Positions 2,325 to 47,657 of a stretch of 64,000 nucleotides of DNA are shown one piece after another. The first letter of the stretch is position 1. Each line of letters begins with the position of its first letter. The stretch covers positions 5,704,001-5,768,000 of the forward strand of contig JANJGN010000034.1 of the NCBI GenBank assembly GCA_026770705.1. Direction: 5' to 3'. The notes below the pieces were generated by a model, which saw nothing but the letters and a program-made list of their open reading frames with translations, searched no databases and was not told where the DNA came from. This DNA comes from Isurus oxyrinchus. Taxonomy: Eukaryota. The position numbers and the translations under genes were made by a program.

Positions 2325-2360
2325 ATTTACGTAAATTAAAAGAGGATGTGGATAACAAAG
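2325..2360 (+). CDS. Micro-exon 1 (36 nt), (D)LRKLKEDVDNK
   Basis: tttctaccttccag|ATTTACGT...AACAAAG|gtaatg; phase 1-1. The first residue depends on an upstream exon that is not seen. Confidence 0.88.
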
Positions 2361-2929
2361 GTAATGACAATCGTGAGGATAATGATATTGACTGTGCCAT
2401 TTACGATTCATGTTAATGTGAAAGTACTTGCTTCGTTATCACATCTTTATGTTAAATATAGCTCCGATGTTGATTTACAGGAGCGTTATCAAATTTGAAA
2501 ATCTGGAAACTATAATTAAGCCTGGATCATCGGGTCATAGTTAGGTTCCCTGACCGAATAAAATCAGCTTGACTACTCTTTGGAAAATATCTACAAAATT
2601 TTAATTGGTACCCAAATATTATTGGCAATCAGTAATTATCAATGTTGAAATCAATTTGAAAGAGCAGTGAGCATACTGTTGACACAAAATGAACTCTGGC
2701 TGTGGACTTCAATATCTAAAGTAAGGAATATATATATAACATCATTACTGAAAACATGCAGAAGGGCATAGATCTCAGGCTCTTTCTGTTTGTCGTAGTG
2801 GGATCGAACACAGGCTTTAATGGAGTCTTGTGCAATGACTTCAATTTAACTGTCGCAGATATGCCCATCAATTTATCAGTAGTACTGAGCTGCACATATG
2901 CTTCGTGAGAAGTGAAACATGCCAAATAT

Positions 2930-4090
2930 TAGAGCATAAGATAAAGGAGTAAGGCACATCATATAGACACTCAAGCTTTATCTGTATTCTGCAACACTCT
3001 GATTTGCCTTTGGCCTTAACATAAGCTGTACAGCTGCTGTTAATACCAGTTGATTTCCCTGGAATCCAAAAAATACTTTTATCGAAGCCTTAATATATTC
3101 AAGGTCTGAATATCCACAAACACTTCAGTAGACCATTCAAGAGATTCAGAACTGTGAGAGTGAACACAATCTTATAATTGTGGGGCCTTATGCTGCGACT
3201 TTTCTTCCAGTGTCCCAGGTTCTGAAACCTTTTCAAATAATCTCCCAATGTGTACCCTACTTCAGAATGTTATGTATTTCAATAATATGTCGCCACACTG
3301 ATGAAAATTCTAGAAAGTATAGGCCAAATCTACACAGCCTCGCATCAGAGGGTGACCCTTTAATACAAGATAGCAAGGTAGTGCACCTGTGGTGTACAGC
3401 GCCCAGATCAAGACTAACCATCCTGAAACATGGCGTCCAATTTTGCACACAACTTTCACGATGTGGCCTCACCAAACCTTACAATACTGTAGCAAGACAT
3501 TGATTCTTATACTTCAATACTGTTGCAACAAAGATCAAAATGTCACTTGGGTACTCATTTCTCTGCTGCGCATCCATGCTAACTTTGTTTAAGTTTTCCA
3601 TCTCCGAATACACCTACATCCCTCTGAGCATTAACCCATGATAGACTCATGGCTGTACAAACGTTCTAATTTCCTATTCTTAAGATCAAAGTGAGTAACC
3701 CCTTAAACCTATACATAATACCACAGCAGCCATATTGTTGTCCACTCACTTAACAACTGTGTAATTACTTTAGAACCTTTTCGTCTCCTTCTCACAGCTT
3801 ATATTACCAAGCAGACGTGCATTTTCCTGAATATGGTACTTTGTTTCTTCATTTAGGGCATGAATGTAGATCACAAATAAATGAAGCCCTAAACATCATC
3901 ACTGCGGCACTCCATCAGCAACGTTGTAAATTGATAATTTCATGTTTGATCCTATTCTGTTATGGTTGTCCGATAATGAACTCTGTATCCACGCTCTTAC
4001 AAACATTCAATTACATGAACCCACAGTTGCTTTATTAGGATTTGCTTACTTGCTTATCGAATGCCATTTGGAACAACAAATATATTGCTA
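2930..4090 (-). mobile_element. Decayed CR1-like LINE fragments
   Basis: Minus ORF 3257-3475 MVRPHRESCVQNWTP matches the LVRPHLEYCVQFWSP motif of CR1 ORF2. Confidence 0.7.
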
Positions 4091-7000
4091 AAGCATCAGA
4101 CCAGGATAGCCGAATGCAATACCCCCCATGACACAAAGAATGAAGTCAGGAGAAACATGGAGCTAGCTTTGTAGGAGCACAGATTTGCCTGTGGGTTGTA
4201 GAGCTAGCAGAGGTTATAAAATGAATGTATAGTTCCCTGGAGAGCGGTCAAACGAATTCGGAGAATTTTTAATTTAAAATCTTATGGACCTGGACTTGTG
4301 CAAGTGAGTTCCTGGATGAACTGAGTTTGGTGTTGTTACATTTTGGCAGCCATTGGTGATTGGAGCAACAGATGTAAATATTTAATTAGTGTTACATTTA
4401 TTCACAAAGTTAAAAGTTGCAAATGTATATCCCCAAACTCGGAAGCCCACCACCAGATTCAACAATTGTCTATTGAAATGTGTTCAAAAAATTGCCCAGT
4501 GTGGGGCACAACGATAAACAAGTAAACATAACGTACACAATGAACACTTTTTCTCTCTGATATAAAGAAAACATAACAACTATTTTCACAATATTTCAGC
4601 ACGCACTGATAAAGGACAAAAATTACATTACAAGCTTTAAAGCATTAATCACGCGACCCCCCTTTCCTAGGACCCCCAGGCATATTGTGTTATACATTTT
4701 GTTTTTACAGAAGAATCACAGACGAAGCACGCTTCAATTTGATCTTGGACATAACCATTCTTTATGTGTTCGCCGCTGCAAACTGAATCCTGAATCTTTT
4801 AGTTTCACTCATAGCTTTGTAGAGGTATCCTCTCCGACAAGCAATGGAGATTTGGGCAACATTTAATGGGCAAATAGTTTTCACTATGTACCCCGCAAAT
4901 AATCCCTGTTAAAACAACACCTCCTATATCACTTGCTTTCACGAGAGTTAGGGTTTCCGTAGCTAAAGTTAATTTATCATCTTGAATATTACCTGCACTT
5001 CCCAAGCTAATGGACCACAGATCAAATTTTTACAATTAATACCACTGTGCTGAAATGCCCGTAAGGAAGGTTGGCATGAGAGGCATCAGGAAAATATAAT
5101 TCGTTTCTTCTTAATTCTTTTTTGCAAAATATGCTGGAAACCTAAAGCCAAAGTTGTTTTGTTTAAGATTTTGAATTTTAATTTTCTCTGAAAATATTCT
5201 GGAATCCATCTTGTTCCCCTCACAGGCTTAGTAATTTGAACCAACACATCAAAATTAAATTATAATACTGCCTTTTCTTGTGTAAAACCAATTCAAATAG
5301 CTAATATCAAACTTCCGAAATGTATTTCTCCCCTTCATTAGATGTGAATTCATCTTTCTGTGATGGGCTAACACGTCTAACAAGACAGAAACAACAGTCT
5401 CTAAATAAGATTGCTGATGGAAACTTGGGTGTGAGCTTTAATGTTTAATGACTAAACAAATATATTTTGAAAGAACCCGATTCCTACCTTAACATTTTCA
5501 ATTGTGTATGGAAGTATTGATAATGCATTCCCCCGATCGCTCAGTGCGACCTCTTAACAAAGCAGAAACATGTGGAAATGCCTGAAAGTTTCGATATTGA
5601 TGGAACTGGAACTTTGTTGGATTTGCTTGTAGTTGTTCACTGTCTATGTTCAGAAAGGCAAATTTCATAGAAAACAATCATATCCTGGAGACCAACAACT
5701 CAGGTCCACAATACAATTGTTTAGTTTCAGTTCTACATTGCTTAACTTTTAAGGCGCTTTGAAAAGAAAATAAAAATCTCTGTATTTTTCACCCAACAAA
5801 AAGGACTCTTTAATGTCAATTCATCTACAATTCCAGCAATATGTTGCGAGTAAGGGACGGGCGAAAGGTACCTCAGAACTTCTTATGCCCACGTGTGAAA
5901 GTCCACACTGACATTTGTATATATTATAGACGGTTTGCGTTATTTTTTCTCTCTCTATCTCAATGCAAGACAATGGCAGAAGTGGTGATAAGCTTTAAAT
6001 CAAGGGAGAGGAAATTGTCTGCACAGTTTGAAAACATTTTTCAATCTGATAGTTGGCACACGATTTTACTAACAACTGTCTTCCCTTCTGATGAGAAAAG
6101 TCACATTTTGTTAAACAGAGGCACTTATTCACTGATTGAATGAGGTGAAGAATCAATGAAATTCAAGAAATTTATGATTCTATTTGCAGTTTCGTTTACT
6201 CATCGTTTTCATGAAATCGTTACTAGAGAGAGGGACAGAAAATCAGTACAGGACTCTGCTAGTAATGATAATGTAAACTAAGCCAAATTTTTGCATGCAA
6301 TCACCACTGAATGTGTGAAGCACAATGTGTATGATCCTAAAAAAGTAAAAAAAAAACAAATAGAGTTAATTGATTATGCTATTGGGTTGACCCTCAGTAC
6401 CAGATGAGCCTGAATAATACTGGGGAGCATTACTTTAAATTTGCAGAGATCACCTGGTGTTACAGAAGCTAGTGATCATTTTTTTTGGTGTTTCAATGGA
6501 AATTTTCTATATCATTTCAGCAAATCTTTCAGGCTAACAGTGAAGAGCAGCCTGGTTTGGCAGGAATGTGAAGTTGAAGTTAAAACAAGATCCTCCATGA
6601 CTTTATTGAATGGTGGGACAAGCTCGTGGGGTACAGTGGCATGCTCCTGCTTCTAATACGTAGGAAGGTATGTTCGTAATCCAATATCATCCCCGATCTT
6701 GGACAATTTGACCTGATTGAATTCGTAGGTAGTTTCCTTATTTCTGTTACTCTCCTCTACATCAATTCATAAGTACCTACTAAAGGCCAACCTCACTAAT
6801 ATACAAGCAAAAAGGTATGTTAGCTTAATAGGCCGTATGGGATTTTCCTCTAGTGCGCTGGTAAACGTGCAGCAGCTCACCATTATCAACCTCGGTTTGC
6901 TGCAATCGACAGCTCCACAAGGCAAATCTCAATCAGAGAGAATCCAGTCTCAAACTCGGCACCTAGCTCATCATTAGCATCATAATTGTTATATAAATAT

Positions 7001-8199
7001 TATATAAATTGAGTGATGCCTACTGACTGACTGCTCTCACTGACATGTACCTATTCATCCTGTTCACACATCATAGCCTTTGACTGTATATTCTGTCTTG
7101 TGAACAAACTGCAGTGTTCACGTCACTGAGTTTCATTTTCGATGCAATGGGATCCATTAATGGATAAACAGGCATTCTTTTCGAGAATGGAATATTTATT
7201 GTTTTCTAAATCGATTTGCCTTAGCTTTTCTCTAGGCACATGCTGATCAGCTGCTGAACAGACTTTAAATTTTATGTTCCTCACTCCACGCCCGACAAGC
7301 ATCCCCAAACCCCCTCACCCTCCCTTCCAACAGCATCACCCTACATCACTCATCATCACCACCACAACCCCTCAAAGTATTTTGAAAGCGTTTATTTTAT
7401 TCTCTGTAATTTTACTCAGGAGGGAAGAAGGTTGTTTCCTCATTCTGTGTCCCATATCTATCCGTAATCAAATAACGGGGAACCTAACTCGTAGCCATAG
7501 GCCAATTCGCAATGACTGATACCAGCAGATTTATTTGTCCTGCCCTTAGTCTCAAAAAAGTAAGAATGATATCACTGAATTTAGATTGTGGGGGCCCTCA
7601 GACAAATCAAACATAATACTTTTATCTCGTTTCTAGTGAGACCTCTCGAAAACAACTTTGCACTACGAGTAATAGTCGTAAGAGCTGGCACCATTCACTT
7701 CTAATTAAATGTGACCTCCTGAAACACACTTGACATCAAATATGACCTCAGGTCAGGCTGAAACTCGTTTGGTAAACGAAAGATAGTGAAAATTATAATT
7801 TGGCTAATGCCACAATCACAGCTTACCTGTGATTTTTGGTTTCCAATTACATTTCCTTTGGTTGCCAATGGAGCAAATCCATCAATCAATCCAGGGTGAG
7901 GGGTGTCTGCCCAAGTTGCTGTTACAGGGAAACACTCTAAACTCTTTTAAAAAGTAACTGGATCTGCACCTTAAGTGGCCTAAGCTGCAGGGCTATGGTC
8001 CAGGCGCAGGAAGGTGGGATTAGACGGGCACCTAGCAATCCTCAGGCTGGCAGAGCCATGATGGGCCGAATGGTGACCTTCTGTACTCTAACTTTTCTAT
8101 GGTTCTATAATCGTGAGGATAAACCTTTGTCACAGCTTGGTCTTCGGCAAGTGTAATAAACATCACTATAGACATTTGTTCACAAAATGTAGGTATTAG

Positions 8200-9760
8200 T
8201 GGATCTGGCTCGGATTTATTGCCCCTACTTAATTTTTCTTGAGAAGATGGTGATGAGCTGCCTTCTTGAACGGCTGCAGTCCATGTGGTTTGCTTTTAGG
8301 AAGGTAATTCCAGTAGTTTGAATAGTAATACTGAAGGAGCAGCGATATATTTCCAAGTCAGGATGTTGAGTGACTTGAAGGGCTATTACCACTTGATGCT
8401 GCTCCCATAACTCTGTTGCCATTGTCCTTCTAGATGTTAGAGATCGTGGTTTTGTAAGGTGCAGTCACAGGGGTTGGGAGAATTCCTGCAGTGCATATTG
8501 TAGATGGCACACACTGCTGCCGCTGTGCTTCTGTGATAGAGGACGTGAATGCTTGTGTAAGAGGTGCAATCAAGCGGGCTGTTTGGTAAAGCCCCTTGAG
8601 TGTAATGGATGCTGCAATCATCCAATATAGTGGGAAAATTCCATCACACTCTAGATCTGTGCCTTGTAGATGTTGGGCGGGCTTTGGTCTGTAAATAGGT
8701 GAATAACTCGTTGCACACTTCCCAACCTCTGAACTGTTCTTCAACTGGAGTATATATGCAGGGATTACTGTTCAGTCTGTGGTTAATGGTCAGTTCAGAG
8801 TGATTCATTCAGTGATGGTAGTGCCTTCAAGGAGCGATGGTTAAATTTACCCTTATTCGAGATGATGATTGCCTGGCACTGGAGATCGTTACTTGCCAGT
8901 TGTCAGCCGAAGCCTTGTCATTGTCCAGCCCTTGTTGAATCTAGACATGGGCTGCTTCAGTTTCCGAGGAGACCCGAATGATACTGAACGCTGCAAAATC
9001 ATCAGAGACCATCCACACTTCTGATCTTATTGTGGGTGGAAGGTCATTGATTAAGCATCTGAAGATGATTGGGCCTAGGGCACTGCTCTGGTGAACTCCT
9101 GCAACGATATCTGGTAGCTGTGATGACTGCCCTCCAAAGGCCACAACTATCTTCCCTTGTGCTAGGAATGACACCAAACAGCCAAGAGCTTTGCCTCTGA
9201 TTCCCAATGACTTCAGTTTTGCTAGGGTTAATTGATGCTAGATTCGATCAAATGCTGCATTGATCCCAAGTGCAGTCACTCTCATCTCACCTCGGCAGCT
9301 CAACTCTTATAGGCATGTTTGAACCAAGGCTGTAATGAGTTCAAGAGCTTAGTGGTTCTGACAGAACCAAAACTGGGCGTCAGTGAACAGTTTATTACAA
9401 AGCCAATGTCTTTTTGTAGCATTGTTGCTGACTCCTTCCGTTACTTTTCTGAGGATGTAACTTCGACTGTTTGGGCGATAATTGGCGGGGTTGTATTTGT
9501 CCTGTATATTGTGTACAAGACGTAGCCGGACAATTTTCTATAAAGTCAGAAACATCTCCGTGTTGTAGCTGCTTTGGGGCAGCTTGACTAAGGACATGGG
9601 AAGTTCTGTAACATAAGTTTTCATTATTGCTGGAACACGGCAGGGCCAATAAAATATGCAATGTTATCTGGTGCGTTCACCCGTTTCTTGATATCATGTG
9701 TGGTGAATTGAATTTGCTGAAGACTGGCATCTGTGATGCTGGGGACCTATGGGGGAAGAG
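8200..9760 (-). mobile_element. Decayed non-LTR retrotransposon (CR1/L2-like) ORF2 RT region and 3' end
   Basis: Minus ORF 8941-9207 reads GVHQSSALGPIIFRCLINDLP...VWMVSDD, a degenerate form of the RT GVPQGSxLGP...YADD motifs. Many stops. Confidence 0.85.
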
Positions 9761-10384
9761 TGAAGATAAAAATATATATATATATTGACAATATCGCCGG
9801 CCCTGGAAAATCAGTCAATTTACAGAATTTTTTTTTGTATCTTCGCACACACTGGTCGGTTTGGAGAAACCTTATTTTCGTCATCCACCGTTATTTGGTC
9901 AAACCTACGTTTCCTTCTGCAACTTCAAAATCATTGGCTTCTTCATACACCAGGCTACTTTCGCCAGTTTCTTTGCTGTAATTGAATGTCAGATGACCCC
10001 GTTTCTCACCGTATGCACAGTCCAGGACAGTGTCCAGGCAATGGGTGCTCGACAACAACAGGGTGGTCCAGGTGCTTCATCAGTGGAGAGCTCCAGCACC
10101 ATTCATAAAATTTGACCTGATCGTGGAGGTAATTTTCAGTGACCTCCAATAAGGAATTTTCCACGGCCTCAAATCGGATCCTGGCTGCAAGCGCAGCCCA
10201 AAGCATGCTTCAGGCAGCATTCCGATTCACTGAAGCTTGAGAATGGGCATCGAGAAAAAAAAAATAGGTTGGAACTGGTGCATAAAGAAAGCCTGCCAAA
10301 ATATTTAGATCGCCCAGTTAACATCCAGAACATAAAATGCCATGAATATAAACTGTGCAGTGGAATTTTACACTGAAATTAAAT

Positions 10385-10625
10385 CAAAACAGAGCAAATG
10401 TTTGGAATCTGAACTGAAAATAAAATGTAGGAAAAACGTAACAAGTCTGGCAGCAACTACGGAGAAAGGAACAGACCGTTTCGACTCCAACATGACTGTT
10501 TATGGTGAAGATTGGACTCGGAACGTTAAGTCGGTTCATCTCTCGCCAGGTGCTGCCGTACCTGCCGAGTTTTTCCAACATCGTTTTCTTTTTTTTTAAT
10601 TTATATTCAATATTAAACTGAAGTC
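10385..10625. repeat. Short imperfect palindromic interspersed repeat, probably a Penelope terminal-repeat derivative
   Basis: Left arm ggaaaaac...tctggcagca...ggagaaaggaacagac is mirrored by ggttcatctctcgccaggtgctgcc...gagtttttcc. Related single arms occur at ~51470 and ~59680. Confidence 0.55.
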
Positions 10626-11421
10626 GCCACAGTGAAAACTCGTGATCTGAATACATGATTCTTTGAGAGTGAAAAGGGTTTTTAAGTTGTCTGTTTGCTT
10701 TTTAACATATGATATCAAAGTTGCGATCTTTCGCCTTACTTCATAGCAGTGCTTGTGCACGTTTTTTTTTTAATATGACAGCCATATGAGGTTAAGATAA
10801 TCTTTGTAACTGTCGATTTGTGTTCTTTTAGAAGCAGAATATGTCATTTTCTGGGGGTCTTAAGGAGTGATTGTCAGGGAACACGACGGCTAGGGGATCC
10901 TGGCCATTTCTGTCAGATATATTTGATGAGAAAATCATTAAACTGAAAAGGTGATAATACTTATTCCCAACAGCAATCTGGGGTCTGTGGCCAACACGAG
11001 CAGATATAATTAACGTACATATCATTGTAGATCGAATCAAATGGAGGAACAGGCTACAGGAACACAATGTCTTCCTCCAATTCCTACATTCTTCTCTTCT
11101 AAAACTGACCCTTTATTTTCTACTCGTTCGTTCATGAATTAGGACGGAGGAGTGCAAAAAAAAGTCATAAAATTTGTGAATGTAAAAGCGGTTTGAAATG
11201 AATTAGTTGAACAGCGTACAATCACCCTGACAGCTACATTAAAAATGTTTTTTTGCATTCTGAATAATATGTGGCTTATTGATATAACAGATTGCAAAAA
11301 ATAACATTTGGAATTATGTGGATATTATTGAGTCATCATGCTTTGGAATTTCAGGGATAAGCACAATTAGCTTAATGGTAATTAATTATATTTGGTAATA
11401 ATAATTATTGTATCCTTATAG

Positions 11422-11448
11422 CAAAAGCATTAGCTGAAAAGAACGATG
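11422..11448 (+). CDS. Micro-exon 2 (27 nt), AKALAEKND
   Basis: tatccttatag|CAAAAGCATTAGCTGAAAAGAACGATG|gtaagt; consensus donor. Confidence 0.88.
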
Positions 11449-11739
11449 GTAAGTAAATCACAAATGATTACCTACAGATAGTTAACTGCAAAAGTTTTCT
11501 TGTAAACTGATTTTCCTGATGCATTGAGCATGAAGCAATTATGGTTTATTTATGCCCCTGTAAAGTTTTTTAAACACTATTGCAACTTTCTGAGATACCT
11601 GTTGTAGACAGTTTAGTCGCAATGCTCTCTCTCACATGTATTTCCTTTTATTCTTCTGAATTCCAATATATGGAAATATGACACAAATTACATCCTAGAT
11701 GGGAACCATAGATATAAACAATCCGCTTTTGTAAGTCAA

Positions 11740-15743: not shown

Positions 15744-15779
15744 AATTAGCCAAAATGGCCGAAAATGTGGATAACTTAG
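15744..15779 (+). CDS. Micro-exon 3 (36 nt), ELAKMAENVDNL
   Basis: ctctttatgctttacag|AATTAGCC...TAACTTAG|gtgaga. Shares GTGGATAAC (VDN) with exon 1. Confidence 0.9.
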
Positions 15780-15884
15780 GTGAGACAATATGAACAAAGA
15801 TATGAAATATTATTTCCAATTATCAGAGTTGAAGTCAACATTGTCAAAATGCCAGAGCGCTGAACTAGCATGCAAGGAGATGAA

Positions 15885-16930: not shown

Positions 16931-17082
16931 GAGCAGTGAAAGGCACTGATCATCTAATTTACTTATTTAATGCTATGCAGGTCGATGAGGGCTACTTTTG
17001 GATATTATAATTTGTGTGCAATATATATTTTTGTAGATTCATGCCATAGCTCAAACACGGTTATGTGTCTGTTTGTTTTTAG

Positions 17083-17109
17083 AACAACAAATCAAGAAGT
17101 GTGAAAGAG
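17083..17109 (+). CDS. Micro-exon 4 (27 nt), EQQIKKCER
   Basis: gtttgtttttag|AACAACAAATCAAGAAGTGTGAAAGAG|gtaaac. Confidence 0.88.
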
Positions 17110-20700: not shown

Positions 20701-20736
20701 AGATAGCAAAGCTGAAGGAAGATCTGACTGATTCAG
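20701..20736 (+). CDS. Micro-exon 5 (36 nt), EIAKLKEDLTDS
   Basis: tttctgttttctatccag|AGATAGCA...TGATTCAG|gtgcaa. KLKED motif as in exon 1; weak donor. Confidence 0.87.
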
Positions 20737-21164
20737 GTGCAAATATGAATTGGCATTATTGAGAGAATAACATCATGATCCTGACAGTCTATACTACTTC
20801 TGTAGTGTAACTCGCATAACATATATATATATTTCTGCGGCATTATTCGATAAGTTTTTAATTGTTAATCATTTAAGTTTATTGTTAATTGACTATGTTG
20901 ATAATACTCTTAAAATGTCTAATCATTATATGTGTATTGCAATTCATTATGAATCTTTAATTATTAAGAAACTCAACAGCTGCTGTCATCAGAAGGACAA
21001 CTGTGTTCAGAATTAATTATAAATGCCTCAAAAAGTAATATCACTAACTTGTTATTGCTCAAATAATTAGAATTATTATTAATAATCTGTTGTATTCGCA
21101 GAAGCTCCAATCAGCTACACAATTTAACATTCTTAAGAATTAATAAATCAAATTTATTACGTAG

Positions 21165-21191
21165 AAAACAAGCTGAGGACGTGTGAGCAAG
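21165..21191 (+). CDS. Micro-exon 6 (27 nt), ENKLRTCEQ
   Basis: tttattacgtag|AAAACAAGCTGAGGACGTGTGAGCAAG|gtacat. Same xxxLxxCxx pattern as the other 27-mers. Confidence 0.85.
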
Positions 21192-21869
21192 GTACATACG
21201 TTAAACCTTTGTGACTACGAAAAGAGCATCCTACTAGAAATCCATTTCAATACCACGATTTTTCTCAATTAGAAAAATTGTATGTAGGCTATCCGATAAT
21301 TGCCTTTTTATAATCTGGGAGCTGAAAGGTCGAGCTGATGAAAACGGTGAGCAGATCAGATCGGACGTGAATTATACGCCAAGTGGAAACTGGCACTCAA
21401 ACTTTCAAGTTACTGCAATGGACTTGATCATCCCCCAAAAGGTAGCAGTTTAACGGGCAGGCAAAGCGACTGACCTCGGCTGTGCCCTCAGAGCATGTTC
21501 TGTTGCAAAGATTATATGAATAGATTTGATAATGCACACACAGATTCAGAGTGGATGAGAGAGTCACGGATAGAGAGAGAGGTGGGGGGGGGGGGAGTTG
21601 TGGTGAGGTGTAGAGAAAGAGAAAATTGTTTCATTAATACAAATCAGTGCAGACTATATCCATAACAGGGAACGACACATTGTGCACAAATTCTTCAACC
21701 GTAAATGCAAATAATAAAATAATTAACTTAATGTATTTTAAGTGTAATATTTGTTTTTCGCTTTTGGCTTTGACTTGCAACCATTGAGATTGTTGGGCCT
21801 TCGGGAAGCACTTTATGTTTCCAAAAATCAAATACTGAATCGACACAGACAGTACCACCTGATTTTATT

Positions 21870-23539: not shown

Positions 23540-23575
23540 AGGTAGCACGGTTGAAGAACGACCTTCGGGACCAAG
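23540..23575 (+). CDS. Micro-exon 7 (36 nt), EVARLKNDLRDQ
   Basis: ttctgtttcaatttcag|AGGTAGCA...GGACCAAG|gtatga. Similar to exon 5. Confidence 0.9.
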
Positions 23576-23639
23576 GTATGAATGCTTGCCAGTGATTGGC
23601 GCACAGTCCTACACGAATGAACCACCACAAAGCCTTCTG

Positions 23640-23860
23640 TCTCGTCTTCATCATTATCTTCGTCTTCTTCTTCTTATTATTATTATTGTTATTATTACTG
23701 TTATTACAATTATTATTCTCCTTCTTCTTCTTTGCCTTCTTCTCCTTCTTCTGTTTTATTTTTTTACTTCTCTTCCTCCTTCTCCTTCCGCCCCTTCAGT
23801 TTTCTTGTTTTCCTGATTATTTTACTTTTCCTTCTCGTTGTTCTTCTTCTCACGTTTCTT
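23640..23860. repeat. Compound degenerate microsatellite (TCT)n/(TAT)n, polypyrimidine
   Basis: cttcttcttcttattattattattgttattattac...; it produces the spurious Leu/Phe/Ile-rich ORFs 23586-24049. Confidence 0.9.
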
Positions 23861-27250: not shown

Positions 27251-27309
27251 CGGATAATGAAACTGAGTGGATTGCAATCCATTTCACAGTACAGTCCTGA
27301 GTACACTAA

Positions 27310-28230
27310 ACATACTAAGGATCTTAGATGGTTGAAAGTAATCGCCCCTCATCCTTCTAATCTCTAATTGGGTATAGGCTAAATCTATCCAACCTTTCCT
27401 TTTAACACAACATAGCCATCACATGAATAATTCAAGTGAAGCTTTAATGAACTGTATTTAAAATAATTGTTTCCTTCCTTTATTTAAACGACGAAAACTG
27501 CAAAATTATAAATATATATAATTAAGACTCCACGCAGCTACAGCAATATTTCACAATTTTGCCATACAAGTCGACTTGCAATAAGTGCCCATATTTGATT
27601 TGCCACGTTCATAAATTTCTGCACCTGAAATATGATTTGTTTTGTGATTCGTGTATCAGTGACCCAGTTCCCTCATTGATTTACAGTCCTGTAGTGCCTC
27701 TCCTTTCAAATAATTTACTGCCTTTCCATACTTCTTGCCAAAGTGGACAAGCTCACGTTCCCAAATTATAGTCCATAAACATTATCGTCCCCCATTAAGT
27801 ATCATATCCAAACGCTTTTTCAGACTCGTCATGTTCTCAGGACAACTGACCTTCAGTGATATTTTTTAGTCACCAAATTAACGGAGCATAATTTGGTCTC
27901 CTCATCCAGGTCATTTTTACAGATTGCAAATGCTTGATTATTGAGCGCAGGTCCCTCTGGCCATCCACTGATAAGACCTTGGCAGCACACAACTTGTTAC
28001 TCACAATATGTCTTATTATTCAATGAGGTTTATTCTTATGGCAGCTGTTCATTACTGTAGACTTATTTCAAACCATTCGACCCAATGTGGCCCAGCTGCA
28101 TCCATATATTATGTTGTGATGGGCTATCCAATGCCCATGCCTATTTGAACTAGCAGTTGCATTTAAAAAGGCAGTTGCTGTGCAAATTAATTACGTATAG
28201 ATTGACAGAATCGCCTTTCTTTACATAAAA
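27310..28230 (-). mobile_element. Decayed CR1-like LINE fragment
   Basis: Collinear similarity to the 3400-4080 and 16250-16930 fragments. Confidence 0.5.
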
Positions 28231-28289
28231 ATGTAAAGATTATTAAAAATGTTTTTGAAACAAAGATGAATGGCTTTGGTGGATAACTT

Positions 28290-37902: not shown

Positions 37903-37929
37903 GAGGTGAACTGAATCAATGCAAGAAAG
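37903..37929 (+). CDS. Micro-exon 8 (27 nt), GGELNQCKK
   Basis: tgttaatttcag|GAGGTGAACTGAATCAATGCAAGAAAG|gtaaat. Confidence 0.87.
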
Positions 37930-38029
37930 GTAAATTATAGCTTAAAAAATCGAAGCCAGAGCAAGATGAGCTGAAGTTCGATTCTTCTGCATAATTACAA
38001 AAAGTTGTTGTACGGCAACTTCAGTTTCG

Positions 38030-38930
38030 CCCGCTATCATAATAATCTTTATCCACTTAGCGCTGGAAATCTACCAAACTCTGCCTTGAACATACTCAGA
38101 CAATTAAGTGTGCATAGCCCTCTATGTTCGAGGGCTTAGAGGAGTCATACAGCGGGGGCTGTTAAATGCCTTCCCATCTCTAACCAAAATGGGCAACCCC
38201 TTATTCTGACACTGTGGTCCATTGTTCTGGTTAGCCAACTGGGGGTATTATGTTCTCATGAGCTATAGCAAACATTTTCTGCGAAATTGGTATGTCGCAA
38301 TTAGATTATCAGTCAGGCTTTTAATTCCCGTGATGTCAAATGCTTCGACACAATCTCTCCTCAAAGTGCTACTGCCATTGCCAGATGATCCCATCTATCG
38401 AGCATTTGTAGCATCCCCTCAGATGCACTTTTGTGCGTTCTGGGGTAAGGTGACGGAAAACACCACTCACTAATCCAGATGTGGTCTTACCAGAGGTCTG
38501 TATATATCTTTTGCAAAGCTCACTTAACCAATTTCAAACACGCTGATAACAGTAGTGAATATGTTCATATCGGTTCAAAATTGCTTGCTGCATGTGTATG
38601 TTTAATCCCGGTGCACGTCCAGGTCCAACTGAATGCAGAGATCTACCCATTCCTCAGCATTCCCAAAGCATTTTTAATGTATGTTCTCCCAAAGTGTTTA
38701 ACGTGAAAATTCAGCACGTTGAAATCCATTCTATTGCCTGCTCGCCCAAGCTGACTGTCCATCCCTGCAGATTATTTCCGTTAATCACATCGAAATTAGT
38801 AGCGCAGCAAACATGCTATTTTACATATAGCCCTTTCATCCAATTCATGAATATAGAATGCAAGTAGCTGAGGTACCATTGCAGCTACTTTTCGTTGTCA
38901 GTTTGTTATATACTGTCTAACCAATCCCCA
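38030..38930 (-). mobile_element. Decayed CR1-like LINE fragment
   Basis: tccagatgtggtcttaccaga (reverse of LVRPHL) at ~38474, and other motifs shared with 3400-4000. Confidence 0.55.
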
Positions 38931-39269
38931 GCACATTGTGCATGTGATTATCATATTTTCCGAATGGACATCATTGCTCACCATAGAGTTTAACTTAAAA
39001 AAAAATGAATGGTACTTGTAGCTCGGTGCCACGCTTGTGAACTAAAGGGAGCTTTTGTGTTGCGTTTTCATCCAACCCAGGTTTGGCCTCCCCGATGTAG
39101 TGAGTCCAGTTTGTTACCAGCAAATGCAGTATAATGAATTGAAGAAGTACAACCAAATAGCTGTTCAATTGGAAGTTATTTTGGTGCTTTTAATGAAAGG
39201 TGCGGGGGCAAAATTAGCTGTTGGTACAGCAGCTCCTATGCTGCATTTTTAACTTACCATGCAAAAAGG

Positions 39270-39830
39270 AGTGGCTGTAGCGGGTGACTCAGTGGTGATC
39301 CTGGGCGCCACAGGGTAAATGCTCCATTCAGAATGTTGAATAAGGAGATAATGAGATGATATGCTATGTAATCGCATCCGAGTGCATGTTGCAGACGCTG
39401 AAGATGATGATTGTTTTATTATTGGGGCGTGTAGGCCTCCTACCTATGATTAAGACCTCAGCTGTGGTAATGTGCCGTTCTTGGTGCGAGATTTTAAGAA
39501 GGATGTAAAGTTTCTGTGGAGAGTGCATAAGAGGCTGCGAAAAAAGTTTTCAGGGACGAGATACTTCAGTTATGAGGATAGATTGAAGAAGATTGAGCTC
39601 TTTTTTTAGGAGAAAAGAATGTAGCATGGAGGTTTGAAAGGACATTTCAAAATCATGAAGGGCATGCACAGAATTGATAGGGAGAAACTGTTACTTATGC
39701 CCATTGGCGGAATGATTGGTAATCGGAAGGCACAGAGTTGAGGTAATTGGTTAAAAAAAAGCAAAAACGATATAAGGGAGATATAATAAACGGTTTCTTG
39801 GATATCTCAGGAGAAATCCATTAGGTGAAG
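39270..39830 (+). mobile_element. Decayed CR1-like LINE 3' fragment
   Basis: attaagacctcagctg (IRPQL; cf. VRPQLEY) followed by cagttatgaggatagattg (SYEDRL), typical of the CR1 ORF2 C-terminus. Confidence 0.6.
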
Positions 39831-39899
39831 TGCTCATTCACAGGGCTTGTGCAGGCGCCATGCGACAAATAACTTCATGTTGCGCTGTACTTTTTGGAG

Positions 39900-40660
39900 A
39901 TTCTGTTGTTCTGTGATTGATGCACAGAAAATGAGTAAAATGGCAATCATATCGTAGCTTTTGGAGGCAATATATGTTGCTTGACCGCCTATCGCCATCA
40001 ATTAGGACAGAAAACTCAAGAAAGGGAAGGGGAGTTTCAGAGATGAACCATGTGAATTTGAAATTGCTGACGGTAAATGCAAAATAGTCAATTTTGCATG
40101 TCAGCTTGAGGGGAGGAGAGAACAATGATCGTATCATCAATACGACTGACAGGAAAATAAAACAGGGTGAGAATGAAGGTGTGAATAGCTGTAGCAAAAA
40201 AAAAAACATGCTTCACATTTCCCACGAAAATGAGAAACATTGCTATGATTCATGTGGATAACGACAGCGACAGTGTATTCCTCGACGAGCTGAGTAGAGT
40301 TAAAGGTGCGGGCATTCAATGCGATAATAGTTTGCACAACATGAATGAAAATTGTGCTGAGTGGGGACTGGTCTTGGCCTCCACTGAACAAAACAATGCA
40401 GAGCTCTGAGGTCGTCTGTATGATGGGATATAGATATTGGGTGTCACTGATGAAAAGGAGACGATGATGGTTTGGAAACGTGAAATTGCTTAATTGTTGA
40501 TTGTCATCAGAGGAGATGCGGATGTAAGCAGAAATTCATTTTGGAATCAAGGAGAACAATCACCTGTAATCGGAATAAGAATGCTCAGTGCAACAGGAAC
40601 TGACAGTAAGTGTGATGTTAACGGCTGATACATTTGAATCCATCCCTTTGTCGATACATA
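39900..40660 (-). mobile_element. Penelope-like element RT remnant
   Basis: Minus ORF 39838-40209 contains SNFKFTWFISETPLPFLEFSVLIDGDR, resembling the Penelope-type RT F..FT.......LPFLD motif. Confidence 0.7.
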
Positions 40661-40719
40661 GCCACAATAGCATGTACTTGACATTCATAGGAAAATCGAA
40701 CAATACACAATTAAACATA

Positions 40720-41350
40720 ATACTTTAATTAAAAGGAGTGGAGCTGTTCATTTGTCCACTCGAGCTATTTTTTGTCCGTGCAGTAAAATGTTGGCAGATC
40801 TAATACTGTATTTCCTCCCTGTCCCCCTTAACCTGCGCCAATCAAGCATCAGAACCAATCCGCTTTGAATTTTTTCAATGATCCTAGGGAAAGAGAATTA
40901 AAAATGCGAACAACCATCTATAAGAAGACATTCCTGGTCGTATCCAAATTACATGGGCACCCTTTATTTAGAAACGGTGCCCTGAGGATCTAGGTTCTCT
41001 CATGAGAAAAAATCTCTCTCGTCATCCCTGTATAAGACCCCTTAAAATGGTATAGGTTTCTAGAAGTTCATAACTCATTACTCTAAACTCCATTGAGTAT
41101 GTCCTATCCAGCTCAATTTTACCTCATAGGTGAACCCATTCATCCCAAAAATTAGCCTAACGAGTCTTCCCTGAACAGCGTCCAATGCAAGTAATGTCCT
41201 TTCTTAAATTAGGTGACTAACAGTCTACAAAGTACTCTATGTGTGGTCCAATTCATTCCCTGCACAGTTGTAGCATTCCCAGGACTAGATTACGTGGCCA
41301 TGAGGGGCCCAAGGGCCTGTTTCTGTGCTGTATGATTCTATGACTCTATT
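40720..41350. mobile_element. CR1-like fragments ending in a plus-strand CR1 3' tail
   Basis: Tail ctgtgctgtatgattctatgactctat resembles the CR1 (ATTCTRTG)n terminus. A similar tail lies at ~8090-8110. Confidence 0.6.
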
Positions 41351-41372
41351 AACACGTTTGTTTTTTTTTCAG

Positions 41373-41408
41373 AACTAGAAGATGCAAAAGTAAATTTAAA
41401 AAAAACAA
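41373..41408 (+). CDS. Micro-exon 9 (36 nt), ELEDAKVNLKKT
   Basis: T-run then cag|AACTAGAA...AAAAACAA|gtgagg. Confidence 0.87.
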
Positions 41409-43020
41409 GTGAGGGAAATACTGTGTTTGCGTGTTTGTGAAAGTGTATGGGAGAGTGGAGAAAGGGAGAGAGGGGGGGGGGTGGAGAGAGAGTCCTGTTC
41501 CGTTAATTTACTAATGTCCCCGGAATAATGCTACACTATAAAAGGCTGGCCAAAGGACTGACAACATCTGCAATCAATTGCAAAATCACATAGACCATTA
41601 CGAGCACATTAAGGAGCCCTTGAAACGTCTCTTTGTAGGAGCTGGCGTTTTAGTGCCATAGCAATTCCATTTTAAAGTGTTGCTGAACATTCATCAGTTT
41701 GTCTCTAAGACAATTCTTTCCAGTTATATGCTTAGCCTAGGTGATGAATGATCCTTTTCCATGTTGGGAGACGTGAGCCTTGTGATAATTTCATTACATG
41801 AAAAATCAAGAGACCAAGATTAATGCTGCTTAGATGTAGAATCACCTTCCATCATGGCAGAATTTAAAATCAATTCTTTAATTCTAATCTCCGCAATGGT
41901 GATCATGAATCGAACAGCGATTGTTATAAACATAACTGTTCACCAATGCCCTCTAGGAGAGGTGAATTACTGTCCTTCTCTGATATGGGCTACATGTGAC
42001 CACGGATTAACGGTCATGTGGTCGGCATTTACATACCCACTGAATTGCCTAACATAAGAATCGACTTAATTGAAGATATGATTGGTTAAGAAATTCTAGT
42101 CTTGCAAGGGAGGCTCATTTAAATAATACCAAAAAGTAATAACAATAACAATAATAATATAGAAGCTACATTTCCTTTGGCGATTATGCTGGATATATGC
42201 AGTTTTAAGCATGATTTAGTCAGGGTATACCATTTTCTGTTATTTACCCTACCAAAAATCTTTCTCAGCTCTTAGCTGCTCATGGATGCTGGATTATCAC
42301 TGTCAGAAAAGCTGATTAAATCAATGCCTATGAACCGGACAGTGTTTCTCTACGTTATGGTCAGCATTTTTAATTTTAGCTTATTATCTCTCTAGGTTAA
42401 CGTAACAGCAAAACAGACCCATCTTACTCGCACTGCCCCAGAATCTGACTTCAGTGAACTCAAGTCTTTGCAAAATTACGTTCGGCAAATCTGCTTCACC
42501 GCGCTTTAAGTTGCCCCAAAAAAGGCTCAGGGAAGAAAGGAGTTGAACATAAAACGTTCAAAACTATTCAAATTAAAATTACACGACATGTGGCAAAGTA
42601 ATCATGCTTATAATAATTAAATGCATATCAATAAGAAGCTGCCATTGGGCCAATATTCGAACTGTGTCGCTTCAGAAAGGGCAATGCAATTAGTTCCACT
42701 ATTCAAAACGATTCCTGCAGCCTTCCTTTGAATTTCATGATCAAAGTTTATTTTTTGAAAAAAAAACTAAAGGAATTCATAGATTATCTATTTGCATCAA
42801 AATGTCAGGCAGTGTATCATAGCAGATTTACTTAACAAAAATGAATGTGCATCTGTCCTGGTTATATTTTGCAAGACAATTTATTTCGGACGTATTTTAC
42901 GACAGATAAACTTGCTAGTGTAGGTCATTCTTTTTCCCGTTATTCACAGTCAAAGTCAAATCAGACATTTAACATGTCCCGAAATTTAATTTTCCCTTAA
43001 GATCTGCAGCATTCAGTAGG

Positions 43021-43185
43021 AAATTTACAAACTCTCTGCTCACTCCATGTATTTAAAATTTTCATCCATGTACCATTCTCATCAATATCACCATCAACAT
43101 TAAGTATAAAATTTACAAACTCTCTGCTCACTCCATATATTTAATATTTTCAACCATGTACCATTCTCATCAATATCACCATCAA
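43021..43185. repeat. Direct repeat: two ~77 bp copies with period 88
   Basis: aaatttacaaactctctgctcactccat...catgtaccattctcatcaatatcaccatcaa at 43021 and 43109, with few mismatches. Confidence 0.92.
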
Positions 43186-43660
43186 AAACCTCGCCAATGG
43201 TTTACCATTTTGTTATAGTGTTGTGCAAATAATTCTGCACGGCACTCCGGATGAGGTTTTTCAAAAACATCTGCAGCATAATTTCCATAATTCTGAAATG
43301 TGTGCCTTTATTTAAAATTCTAGAATATGTATGCATGAGTTACCAGTTTTCCCTGTTCCTGATCCCGGAGAGTGATGGAAACGTATGTTCCGAAAACAAT
43401 GCTAATTTAAATTGTTCCAAAGTCATACCAATTTTGTTCTTTATTAATTGCCCTTTGAGAAAGTACGAGAAGCTATTCAGCTGTGTGAAACTTGGGGCAA
43501 ACATTGATAAGCATTATATTATGGTGTTGTAAGCAATTTCCACAACCCGTAAATAATGCAAATTTCGAACGACTCACTCACATAAATGTTATATCATTTC
43601 GGATTCTTAGCAATAAAGCAACTGCCAATTACTATTACTAATAATGCAGTTTGCTTTCAG

Positions 43661-43687
43661 GCGATCAGCTGGATCTATGCCAGAAAG
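43661..43687 (+). CDS. Micro-exon 10 (27 nt), SDQLDLCQK
   Basis: gtttgctttcag|GCGATCAGCTGGATCTATGCCAGAAAG|gtacgc. Similar to exon 8. Confidence 0.87.
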
Positions 43688-44149
43688 GTACGCTTTTGTG
43701 ATTTCTGGACGATTTCTCCCTTATTTTATGCATGTATTTTGCAGTAGAGAACTGTGTAACAACATTGAACATCCAGTAATACAGAGTATATATAGGTGTT
43801 TTATATTTGCTATGTATGCATCAAAGAATGTTCCGCTCGCTTAACCCTGATAGAACAAACACCAATGGCATTATGTTACAATTAATTGCACCTATCAAAC
43901 TGGACTGAACCACCCCTTGAGGTAACAAGTTCAAAATTGCAAGTGGTGATCGTTACAAAAGATCCACTTCAAATTCTAGCCCCATCTGTTACTGAATGTA
44001 TTACATTCTCGGTTGACGGTTTTGATCTCTCCCATTTAGCCTATTGTTCTCGCTACTCGCAGTAAAATCTCAACTAAACTGGAAGCATCAAAAGCAGAAT
44101 GAATGACTAGTTTGCAGAATACCACCAATCAGTAGATAAGAAAGATACA

Positions 44150-44700
44150 AAACGTTTGATTTAATACCATTGTAATATACTATGTTGTTCTCACACTCAA
44201 ATTGCTGTCATCGGCTTCCTGTTCCAGTGAGGTTCAACGCACACTGGAGGAACAGATCTCCATCTTCCGATTAGGCATTCAGCAGGTTACTGGGTGATAA
44301 ACTGAGTTCAACATCTTCAGGTCATAAACTGCCCTGTACGTTGACTATTATTGTCAGATGACGGTCACGATATTATTCTCATGGTTTTGCTTTCAAACAG
44401 AGTTGTTCGCTAATCGGCAATTAACACTGCTCTCTGGATCAATGCATTTTTTCCTTACAACTTCCATTTCCAGTGCACTTTCGGCTTGTTCCATGACAAC
44501 TTTGACATTTAACCTTTTTCGCCGCCTATCATGCCCTAGATTTTGTTCTATGCCACAATTTTCCTTTCAGTGGCGGAAAATGATCACATCTCTGTCTTCC
44601 TTCAGTTCCGAATGACAGTTATTTTCGAGTTAAATTGTTAACTCCCCTTCTTTCTCCAACAAATCTGGCGTTATTTTTTAATTTATTTAATTTCAGTTTC
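44150..44700 (+). mobile_element. Penelope-like element 3' remnant (GIY-YIG C-terminus and terminal repeat)
   Basis: 44220 onward translates CSSEVQRTLEEQISIFRLGIQQVTG**TEFNIF, like the R..LEE..LIFRLGTL.P.GLN.EF tail of Penelope ORFs. Confidence 0.65.
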
Positions 44701-44849
44701 CAGAACCCATTGTACTTGACTTTTCCTTCCGAATTTCTCGAGCTGCAACGTTAACTTTGATGGTTTGTGCAAAATCAGGAAGTTCAGAAGGAATGCACCC
44801 GGATGGGTCACTCATTATCGAACAAATTATCAATTATTATAATAGCAAA

Positions 44850-46990
44850 CTCAATCAAGTCAACATTTCAAAATCATCCTTTCTAAGATCTGGGGCCGAA
44901 AGCAAAAGTTGGGAGACCTGTCTCACAGACTGGTCAAGCAACAGCCTGACACATTTGTACTCCCGGCATCATGCCTAAGAGACATTCTCCCAGGCACCAA
45001 CATCACAATCCGTGGGCATGCGCTATGCCACCTTCAGGACAGATCGAGCAGAGGTGAATGCACCGTAGTATACACTCCGTAGACAGTTGACTTTGGGGCC
45101 CTCAGCACCCACTCCAGACGACATGAAGTTGCAAGGCATCAGGATTAATATTGGCAAGGAAATCGCCTGCCGATTACCACGTACTGCCTTCCTTCAGCTA
45201 ATGAACCATAATTTTCCCATCTTGCAAACAACATAGAGGAAGCACTGAGGCTGGCAATGGCACAGAATGTACCCTGGATTGGGGACTTCAATGCTTATCA
45301 TCTATACTGCCTCAGTCGCTCCGCTACGGCCAAGCAGGTGGAATGCTAAAGAAAATATCAGCTAGAGTGGTTCTGTGCCTCGTGGTGAGGGAATCAAGAA
45401 TAGGGAAGGACCCAATTTTACCAGATATTCAGAAACTGGCCAGCTGCAGATACAAATCTCCCTGACAGTATCGGTAGGAGTGAACATCATGCTGTCATTG
45501 TGGAATTGAAGGCCCGTCTTCACGTTGAGGATACGTTGCATCGTGTTCTGTGGCACTAGCACCATTGTTAAATGGGATTGGTTCCAAACCTACCTACCAA
45601 TTTAAAACTGGGAAAACAGGAGGCCCATGGGCCGTCAGCAATAGTAAATTTTTGTTGAGCCAACATTTGTAAACTCATGGAATGACATATACCCCACTCC
45701 CCCATTAATGCCATGGCAGATGATCAACCCTGCTTAAATAAAGACTGCAAAAGGGCCTATCAGAAGCATCATGAGGCATACTTCAGAAGGAGGCTTCCAA
45801 TTGGTCAAACTACAACACAGGGCTGTTTTCCTCCCAAACAGCAACCAAATCAATGGATAGGCATCGCTAACCTATTCCAGAACATACGGATCAAATCTAA
45901 CCACTACAATAATGCCACATCAATTCGACAATGCTGTTCGACACTTGAAGAACATACTGGAGGGAGAAACTCCATGACTTATTCAGCTCCTGATCTCATT
46001 ACAGCTTTTATTTAAAAATGGGCAAAATTGACAAACTCACAGATGTGACTGCCCTTGATGTCAAGTCAGTGCTTGGCCAAGTGTAGCATCAAAAGCCCTA
46101 ACAAAACGGGACCAATGGGAATTGATGGAATGTTGGGAGGGGGTGGGGGAGGGGGGAGGGGTGCGGATGATGGCGGCTGGTGGGGGACCTCCACTCTCTG
46201 GATAAATATATATCATAAAAGGAAGATGGCTGTAGTTGTTGTAGATCAATAATTTCAACAGCAGGACATCACTGCCAATGATCCTCGCGTTAGTGCCCTA
46301 CCCCCAACCGCCTTCCAAAGCATCATCGATGCACTTCCTTCCATCATAAGGTCACAAATGGATACTTTCCCTGGCGATTGCACACATATCAGCAGCGTTT
46401 GCCTATCCTCAATGTCTGAAGTTGTTCCGGTCCAAATACAGAATGAAATGGAAATCATCAGTGCTTGGAGCAACCTGTGGAAAGTAATTCTAATGCCACG
46501 CATGTACTGGGAAATTACCATCTCCACAAGACAGCATCTAATCATTACCACTTGACTTTCATTGGCATTGCTATCATTGTTTCTCCCACAATCAACATTT
46601 TGATGCTACCGTTGACCAGCAACTGAATGGGGCTAGCCAAATCAGTACTCCAAAATCAGATCAGAGTATATGAAGCCTGTGATGGGTAATTCAGATCTTG
46701 TTTCGATAAGTCTGCCCAACATCTACAAGATAGAATTATATGCCTGATGGAATAGTTTCCATTTGCCTTGATAAGTGTAGCTCCAGCAATGCTGAAAGAA
46801 GCTCGAGGGCATGCAGGGCAATGCTGCCCATTTGAATGCCTCCTCATCCAACAGCATTCACTCCCTCCACCTCCGTCGTTTAGTGGCAGCAGCGAATGCC
46901 ATTGCAAGATGCACTGCAGTTACCTACAAGCCTCCTTGAACAGTACCTTCCAAACCCACGATCATTACCATCTGGAAGAGCAAAGGTAGA
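44850..46990 (+). mobile_element. Decayed plus-strand copy of the same LINE family with endonuclease and RT remnants
   Basis: tggattggggacttcaatgct (W-I-G-D-F-N-A, the APE endonuclease GDFN motif) at ~45276. The 46250-46990 segment is reverse-complementary in style to the minus-strand copies. Confidence 0.8.
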
Positions 46991-47621
46991 GGAGAACGGT
47001 CCTGTTGCAGAGGGGGAATGGTTTGGCACTATTTTGGAACGTAATGAGCCATTAAATCCCGAAAATGTTGAGCTTTTTCCACGAGGTCATAATTGGTTCG
47101 TTTCCTTAACTCTACTTATGAACATCTAAACATGCATGTTAACTTTTATCAATAACAAAATCTTTTATTTTAAATGTATTTTTTTTAAGTTAAGGTAAAA
47201 ACAACTGCTTATGCAAGACAGTTTCCCCGTTCCGCTGATGATAAAATTAGAATGATATGATCCTGTTGATGAAAGAATAGGCAATAACAATTATTGTGGT
47301 TTTCCAAAATATCAATGACGTTAGCGATATTGATAAATTCTAATAGTTATGGGCATTGTTATGGCGCTTTTAGGGGTGTTGATGAATACAATAACAAGCA
47401 TTTTAGTTATCAGTACTTGCATAATTCTATTCACAATAGCAAAACATTCTTTTTCTTTAAGTTTCAAAGCAAATTTCTCCAATCCAATACAAAAGGTTAT
47501 TATCGAAAATCATTTAACATTCAGCCTCAGATGTATTTGCAAACCTGTGTGCGGGTCATGAGCTGTTCCTGTTTTCAGAATATATGGGTTTTATGAATGG
47601 TTTATTTCTGTCTCATTTCAG

Positions 47622-47657
47622 AGCTGGGCAATGCCAAGAAAGCTTCAGATGGCTCAG
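47622..47657 (+). CDS. Micro-exon 11 (36 nt), ELGNAKKASDGS
   Basis: tttctgtctcatttcag|AGCTGGGC...TGGCTCAG|gttatc. Paralog of exons 14 and 17; weak donor. Confidence 0.8.

Follow-up and report, generated by a model that had tools for sequence, protein, structure and literature searches.

An array of about 400 microexons in Isurus oxyrinchus, in which the 36+27 exon pair is probably a copying unit and not a splicing switch

Introduction

A run of minute exons, alternately 36 and 27 nucleotides (nt) long, is found in the genome of Isurus oxyrinchus (4.98 Gb; assembly GCA_026770705.1) within a stretch of 64,000 nt of contig 34 (JANJGN010000034.1), C34:5,704,001-5,768,000, hereafter denominated the window. 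An earlier note on this DNA remarked that each 36+27 pair corresponds to exactly three heptads of a coiled coil, and proposed that the length of the encoded rod may be tuned by alternative splicing, or by duplication of pairs. The locus raises the question whether the pair is the step by which a protein is lengthened and shortened, or the module from which its gene was assembled.

The window lies inside a large gene, gene C, which runs on the plus strand for about 1.53 Mb, from C34:4,868,774 (at least) to an exon encoding a B30.2/SPRY domain (C34:6,395,819-6,396,339). The next paralog, called here D, is located about 1.08 Mb downstream of gene C. We consider it probable that about 400 microexons are spliced mostly in order, with scattered single skips, into a rod carrying the B30.2 domain, and that the pair is an ancestral three-heptad copying unit, not a splicing switch. 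In the comparisons reported below, gains and losses concern single exons more commonly than pairs, and the pair is therefore likely a copying unit and not a dial. Positions without prefix follow the numbering of the window.

The 36+27 pair as a module

The eleven exons described by the note at 2325-47657 were all recovered by scanning for AG...GT-bounded, stop-free segments in phase 1, and strictly alternate between 36 and 27 nt. The arithmetic of the note is correct, since the exons are symmetric and a pair measures 63 nt, or 21 amino acids (aa). Joined in silico, the eleven exons encode 116 aa; the hydrophobic period of this peptide is 3.50, and core residues make up 74% at heptad positions a and d. 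Core residues occupy positions 2, 5, 9 and 12 in 36-nt exons, and positions 4 and 7 in the common class of 27-nt exons. The a/d core fraction is 0.68-0.75 after deletion in silico of an adjacent pair, against 0.40-0.71 after deletion of one exon, and the idea that removal of a pair keeps the register holds. A cysteine is found at position d in 40 of 83 36-nt exons, and may cross-link chains.

On the scale of the gene, the commonest distance from one 36-nt exon to the next is 21 residues (65 of 146 intervals). Intervals that are multiples of seven number 68; the other 78 measure mostly 12, 17, 30, 39 or 44 residues. In a part of the gene including 205 exons, 37 of 79 intervals are of 21 residues versus a mean of 16.9 in shuffled orders, and none of 5000 shuffles reached the observed value. 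The 36+27 pair is hence the basic module of the array. Strictly alternating runs reach 17 exons in the same part, and the 2325-47657 range is the second longest, with 12 exons counting the one at -6274.

Alternation ends directly after 47657, where the order becomes 36, 36, 27, 36. Here tandem genomic units of about 8 kb begin (at 47201), each including 36+36+27-nt exons equivalent to 33 aa, which is not a multiple of seven; the duplication extends beyond the end of the window. Farther downstream, tandem units of 27-29 kb feature 13 live exons each, corresponding to 121 residues. The hydrophobic period, 3.50 in alternating runs, is 3.575, 3.63 and 3.555 in the 39-, 33- and 121-residue zones, respectively.

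About ten of the 27-29-kb units are arranged in tandem at C34:5.88-6.17 Mb (+179 to +460 kb from the window), and each includes two 15-nt exons. An additional 36-nt exon with acceptor CAA was seen in the five copies examined; counting it, the unit would measure 133 aa, exactly 19 heptads.

Gain and loss of exons

Eleven confident differences in exon content distinguish gene C from paralog D. They measure 9, 9, 9, 21, 21, 21, 9, 1, 30, 33 and 19 residues, and eight of them break the register. Rows at -57886, -51622, -29039 and 88042, and at 6809395 in D, were dropped as low-confidence; the exons 82880, 110867 and 124393, dead in C as well as in D, and a duplicate row (-21104) were left uncounted. 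Two of the 9-residue differences fall within 2325-47657, and correspond to the dead exon at 21320 and to an extra 27-nt exon of D, flanked there by the counterparts of exons 23540 and 37903. The order of exons in D across the same range is 36, 27, 36, 27, 36, 27, 27, 36, 27, 27, 36, 27, 36, and the clean alternation seen at 2325-47657 is consequently particular to the gene C copy. Gain or loss of whole pairs, as proposed by the note, does occur, as three of the eleven differences are exactly of 21 aa; it is not the prevailing mode, because the other eight shift the register and the tandem units add 33 or 121 aa.

The second 8-kb unit includes a 36-nt exon (60781) with a dead acceptor. The second unit is also present in X1, a related DNA run with about 93% similarity in this region, and in X1 the donor of the same exon is lost. 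The exon is accordingly dead in both lineages. An in-frame AG 9 nt downstream of the dead acceptor could yield a 27-nt exon. A dead splice site is in effect a permanent skip of one exon, and the gene has remained under selection after many such events.

Paralog D joins the head block straight to a zone of 21-nt exons, and lacks about 241 kb, with 35-40 exons, of the front of gene C (C34:4,850,373-5,091,193 in gene C, versus 6,455,836 in D). In D, the 36-nt exon at C34:6,849,261, ortholog of 55757/63673, has gained an internal GT at +27, so that either a 27-nt or a 36-nt form might be spliced in.

The whole gene and its B30.2 end

Intact microexons called for gene C are 408 (200 of 27, 147 of 36, 37 of 21 and 24 of 15 nt), totalling 11,829 nt and 3,943 codons; 16 more are broken. 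Over 1.66 Mb (C34:4.81-6.47 Mb), 414 intact calls lie on the plus strand and 3 on the reverse. The whole-exon models were trained on these same exons, so the reverse strand serves as control, and some divergent exons are missed. Only 6 prolines are found in the about 3,900 residues of the rod. The terminal B30.2 exon has a phase-1 acceptor, is in frame with the array, and matches Pfam SPRY with an E value of 1.8e-13. Five related B30.2 exons are located on C34, and pattern searches detected exon arrays upstream of four of them. Two B30.2 exons at C21:89,722,233 and 91,348,269 score next after these five, with 32-33% identity, and may belong to sister rod genes.

Nonsynonymous and synonymous distances between gene C and paralog D are dN 0.101 and dS 0.232 (dN/dS 0.43), and the intron distance is 0.20. 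The comparison covers 77 exon rows and 711 codons, takes in only exons recognisable in both copies, and still includes the duplicate row -21104 among its rows. The dN/dS ratio indicates that the gene is under purifying selection.

The 22-kb head block common to genes C and D (C34:4,827,827-4,850,373 in gene C) yielded no signal-peptide or transmembrane exon and no convincing coding exon, and the first coding exon of the gene was not located. A BTN IgV query gave 59 matches in the genome, none at C34 4.8-6.5 Mb; the best BTN-type IgV matches are on C21. A tblastn search of both head regions gave chance-level matches only (best E 0.99), and there was no Pfam Ig match in the 126 scored out of 146 listed open reading frames (ORFs) of the paralog D head. 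Neither Pfam nor four RING-bearing TRIM proteins matched a RING or B-box on the D head, and gene C shares the 22-kb block with it. Pfam was also run on 23 of the 87 ORFs of C34 5.164-5.194 Mb, which is not head sequence. A start of the gene at the 21-nt exons of C34:5.186 Mb was considered and rejected, because the array reaches on to 4.869 Mb. The possibility that the array encodes the neck of a C-type lectin (a CD23-like stalk of 21 aa) was likewise discarded: none of 133 Lectin_C matches (150 of 616 candidates scored) is on C34, and the array ends in B30.2.

Other observations concern the surroundings of the gene. A 21-nt exon at C34:5,091,461-5,091,481 ends in T and would form TAA at its junction with the exon that follows; given its poor donor, it is likely a dead exon, or one that has to be skipped. 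A broken remnant of a 7-transmembrane receptor (Pfam 7tm_1, weak) lies between the B30.2 exon of gene C and the head of gene D (C34:6,415,857-6,416,582). Most of the 133 Lectin_C matches come from C43 (0.02-6 Mb), where split exons of C-type lectins form a very large array.

Junctions, donors and isoforms

The note had counted glutamate (Glu) at 13 of 16 junctions. The figure is obtained only by counting exon 60781 as a seventeenth exon; as its acceptor is CGG, the proper figure is 12 of 15. All the 120 ordered junctions that may be formed among the 16 intact exons of the window are stop-free, and 97 encode Glu. That any subset of exons is skippable in frame is thus true of the window; gene-wide, in the part tested, 2 of 227 junctions formed by single skips are stops. 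The last base of the exon is G in 354 of 408 cases, and Glu is found at 258 of 407 junctions of the whole gene, directly before the leucine at position a. In phase 1, a final G restricts the junction codon to Val, Ala, Asp, Glu or Gly, and the prevalence of Glu probably follows from the preference of the donor for G at -1 and from exons beginning with AA or AG by common descent. Selection for interchangeable junctions is unnecessary to explain it. Avoidance of stop junctions by exons ending in T seemed to hold on part of the gene; in the automatic chain of the whole gene, two of four such junctions read TAA.

The donor consensus recognised by U1 is MAG/GTRAGT, with nine positions (the slash marks the end of the exon). 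Matches to it in 141 exons outside recent duplications are distributed as follows: 4 matches in 1 exon, 5 in 5, 6 in 35, 7 in 58, 8 in 38 and 9 in 4. The donors GTGCAA, GTACAT, GTACGC and GTTATC, singled out in the note as non-consensus, are indeed present at 20701, 21165, 43661 and 47622, but are not unusually weak (6, 7, 7 and 6 of 9), and their counterparts in paralog D are identical or differ little. Donor strengths of neighbouring exons are uncorrelated (rho 0.00), and weak donors neighbour each other 12 times versus 11.6 expected. Donors fully matching on the exon side are weaker on the intron side (2.37 versus 2.93 of 4, p 4e-5), which is the usual compensation.

Models of related genes are available in other cartilaginous fishes, among which XP_042192744 (chimaera, 1,697 aa), XP_038671249 (catshark, 945 aa), XP_055510696 (skate, 295 aa) and XP_042191566-8 (chimaera). 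Sharks, rays and a chimaera host the nearest named relatives of the B30.2 domains of the cluster. Internal differences between isoforms in the automatic models are of 9 (chimaera), 9 (catshark), 6 and 9 (ray) and 7 aa (an older chimaera model). None of the five is of 21 aa. They come from related, not necessarily orthologous, genes and are indirect evidence, which favours the skipping of single microexons. A query with the B30.2 domain of gene C for longer proteins retrieved none at E<=1e-25, in what is a weak search. The models P0265 (skate), P0154 (chimaera) and P0157 (epaulette shark) start with a short hydrophobic stretch, which could be a signal or anchor, or a modelling artefact. The runs X2, X3 and X5, guessed to be RNA, leave the bins of the B30.2 exon uncovered and have reads on apparent repeats; they provide no evidence either way on expression.

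Features of the window

Exons and related features are listed in Table 1. Intronic repeats include an 88-nt two-copy tandem repeat (43010-43185) and a TTA microsatellite (23674-23717). The candidate exons 48815-48856 (42 nt) and 50733-50759 were discarded, as they were uncalled by the whole-exon models, which include no 42-nt class; the one at 50733 scored at control level.

Table 1. Microexons and related features of the window (D, paralog D)
Feature	Position	Strand	Remarks
36-nt phase-1 microexon	2325..2360	+	12 aa; a/d = positions 2, 5, 9, 12; ortholog intact in D
27-nt phase-1 microexon	11422..11448	+	9 aa
36-nt microexon	15744..15779	+	
27-nt microexon	17083..17109	+	
36-nt microexon	20701..20736	+	donor CAG/GTGCAA, identical in D
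27-nt microexon	21165..21191	+	donor AAG/GTACAT, identical in D
Dead 27-nt exon	21320..21346	+	acceptor GGG; D copy at C34:6812758 has TAG, intact; overlooked in the note
36-nt microexon	23540..23575	+	
Insertion point	27296..27314		D has 1.3 kb more DNA, with extra 27-nt exon (C34:6819787)
27-nt microexon	37903..37929	+	
36-nt microexon	41373..41408	+	last base A
27-nt microexon	43661..43687	+	donor AAG/GTACGC
36-nt microexon	47622..47657	+	donor CAG/GTTATC; opens first 8-kb tandem unit
Tandem genomic duplication	47201..63510	+	units about 8.1 and 7.9 kb apart, 74-82% alike
36-nt microexon	52587..52622	+	right after another 36-nt exon; alternation broken
27-nt microexon	53293..53319	+	
36-nt microexon, second tandem unit	55757..55792	+	
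36-nt exon, dead acceptor	60781..60816	+	acceptor CGG, not CAG
27-nt microexon, second tandem unit	61473..61499	+	
36-nt microexon, third tandem unit	63673..63708	+	

Origin of the array and competing explanations

The array most probably derives from a module of 21 residues shared between a pair of phase-1 exons, which would have been multiplied by tandem duplication at scales visible in the sequence, namely the pair, the 33-aa unit, the 121-aa unit and the whole gene. Unequal crossing-over may have driven the multiplication, the symmetric phase making each gain or loss safe for the frame, and the array would then have been eroded one exon at a time by mutation of splice sites. Breaks in register of 9, 12, 17, 30, 39 or 44 residues may be tolerated as stutters or hinges. 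The predicted product is a rod of some 3,900 residues, a segmented coiled coil that terminates in a B30.2 domain; its estimated mass is about 470 kDa per chain if full length. The rise of a coiled coil is 0.148 nm per residue, and the rod would accordingly be about 580 nm long. Its job is likely that of a long spacer or scaffold, holding the B30.2 domain far from an anchor. Occasional skips of single microexons would likely produce small variations in length, not organized in a ladder.

Several data weigh against this reconstruction, or pull towards whole pairs. The 21-aa differences between the paralogs are among them, and so is the loss of exon 60781, after which a unit of 33 aa contributes only 21 aa net. 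Introns joining a 36-nt to a 27-nt exon are shorter than those joining a 27-nt to a 36-nt exon (median 1,660 versus 3,438 nt, p 0.008), and errors in exon calling inflate the number of intervals other than 21. TAA is read at two junctions of the automatic chain: an exon overlooked at C34:5539794 accounts for one of them, and the probably dead exon 5091461 for the second. Neither a start codon nor the first coding exon of gene C was found in the head block shared with gene D. An Atlas cluster of coiled-coil and SPRY proteins of 1,802 aa is named 'isoform X51', a lead that hints at many isoforms in look-alikes. Lastly, splicing order and expression of gene C are deduced from DNA.

A gene in which 36+27 pairs are skipped or duplicated together, changing the rod by register-keeping steps of 21 residues, would account for the modal interval of 21 aa, the two stretches of strict alternation (17 and 12 exons long), the three 21-aa differences between C and D, the shorter 36-to-27 introns, and the register kept in silico when a pair is removed. 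We regard it nonetheless as very improbable: 8 of 11 paralog differences and the tandem units of 33 and 121 aa are not multiples of seven, weak donors do not cluster, and no isoform difference in relatives measures 21 aa. Moreover, one pair adds 21 residues to a rod of roughly 3,900, which is about 3 nm or 0.5% of the length, and a useful ruler would need skips of large blocks. Regulated splicing could as well vary the rod strongly by single exons or large blocks with no pair rule, producing rods specific to cell types, much as the tails of chicken BG proteins vary or as nebulin and titin come in several isoforms. The stop-free 120 of 120 junctions of the window, the isoform differences of 6-9 aa in relatives, the 'isoform X51' cluster and the alternative splicing of chicken BG tails (in the available excerpts of PMC5938342) speak for such regulation, but the strength of the splice sites is ordinary and weak ones form no blocks, and the isoforms of relatives are automatic models of related genes differing by one short piece; we judge it unlikely. 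A bolder version, in which a half-micron rod made from more exons than titin (about 408 versus 364) is shortened by skipping blocks of exons, so that cells set the distance of a B30.2 sensor from its anchor over tens to hundreds of nm, is a speculation that we would not expect to prove correct.

The array might alternatively be decaying or only partly used, giving several shorter transcripts or leaving far 5' exons that no longer reach the B30.2 exon. The 16 broken exon copies, and more identified by comparison, the missing start exon, the lost front of paralog D and the size of relatives' models (202-1,697 aa) fit this hypothesis, which is countered by the dN/dS of 0.43 (dS being similar to the divergence of introns), by the scarcity of prolines in the rod, and by splice sites mostly intact in both paralogs (77 exon rows); a neutral set of four bases would remain identical only 46% of the time. 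Decay or partial use appears highly improbable. Of the ruler idea, the modal 21-aa module and the symmetric phase survive; splice tuning locked to pairs is not supported, and the features that evoked it are probably a by-product of the growth of the gene. The copying unit with scattered single skips is the reading that we retain.

A specialist should be surprised by about 400 exons of 15-36 nt spread along 1.5 Mb, and by a cluster of up to five such genes that automatic annotation misses or cuts short. Exons of 15-36 nt also escape ordinary read aligners. The gene would be an extreme test case for accurate splicing of microexons and for the growth of a coiled coil exon by exon, in a rod that tolerates frequent breaks in heptad register. 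If true, a rod shortened by block skipping would be a kind of splice-set ruler that we did not find described, in the literature searched, in innate immunity or cell architecture. A ruler locked to pairs would be striking too, if true, but both the genome and the isoform models speak for a copying unit.

Comparison with known systems

In a tree of B30.2 domains, 12 chondrichthyan rows form a clade (support 100/100) apart from the 17 BTN, TRIM and other rows sampled. Gene C falls in this chondrichthyan family, as its B30.2 domain belongs to the clade, its heptad rod is in frame with the domain in the in silico join, and no RING or Ig was found. The models of chondrichthyan relatives share the clade and a K/E/L-rich rod without RING, B-box or Ig, but are far shorter than the about 4,100 aa predicted here, and bear borrowed names (TRIM-like, A33-like, nuclear-pore anchor-like). 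In the literature searched, mostly outside subscription journals, nothing was found that describes the family or its models, and the excerpts of PMC11788884 do not describe it either. A bony-fish protein, tarpon P0244 (712 aa), combines a coiled coil with B30.2 and has a signal-peptide-like start; its B30.2 domain is outside the shark clade, and its design, similar to that of the shark rods, may be of separate origin.

TRIM proteins of the TRIM39 and TRIM21 types, source of most database names of the relatives, similarly feature a coiled coil followed by B30.2. Their N-terminal RING/B-box was not found in the paralog D head or in relatives' models, and the rod of gene C is far longer and built from microexons. 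Butyrophilins have a few heptads and then a terminal B30.2 domain, according to the excerpts of PMC4046983. Gene C resembles butyrophilins and ERMAP in having B30.2 straight after heptads; these proteins have Ig domains and a membrane span, whereas no Ig was found for gene C, whose B30.2 domain is in a separate clade. The hypothesis that gene C is a butyrophilin with Ig and membrane span was rejected, as the searches above found no Ig near the gene.

Chicken BG genes, as described in the excerpts of PMC4046983 and PMC5938342, form a tandem cluster, and encode a coiled coil by 13-36 exons of 21 or 24 nt with the first codon split, the number of exons differing between paralogs and haplotypes. 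The length of BG tails is altered by alternative splicing, and the shortening described is intron read-through, not paired skipping (excerpts of PMC5938342). The likeness to gene C is in the way the tail is built, a coiled coil made from many small exons with the first codon split. BG genes lack B30.2 and include exons for a signal peptide, an IgV domain and a membrane span, whereas gene C has B30.2 and the searches above detected neither Ig nor transmembrane exons in it; against the 21/24-nt exons of BG, the about 400 exons of gene C are mostly of 36/27 nt, and only 37 of 408, mostly in one zone, are of 21 nt.

Nebulin and titin provide the model of a ruler. The length of nebulin varies by splicing and tracks that of the filament (excerpts of PMC9140763 and PMC10912352). 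Isoforms changing by whole repeat units were not seen for gene C on the indirect evidence at hand, which is 0 of 5 differences of 21 aa in relatives and 3 of 11 multiples of seven between C and D. Nebulin and titin consist of actin-binding or Ig/fibronectin repeats; the rod predicted for gene C is a coiled coil. The likeness concerns the way of working, a giant modular protein made from hundreds of exons, with no homology claimed; titin has 364 exons (excerpts of PMC10912352), and gene C exceeds it in microexon calls (408).

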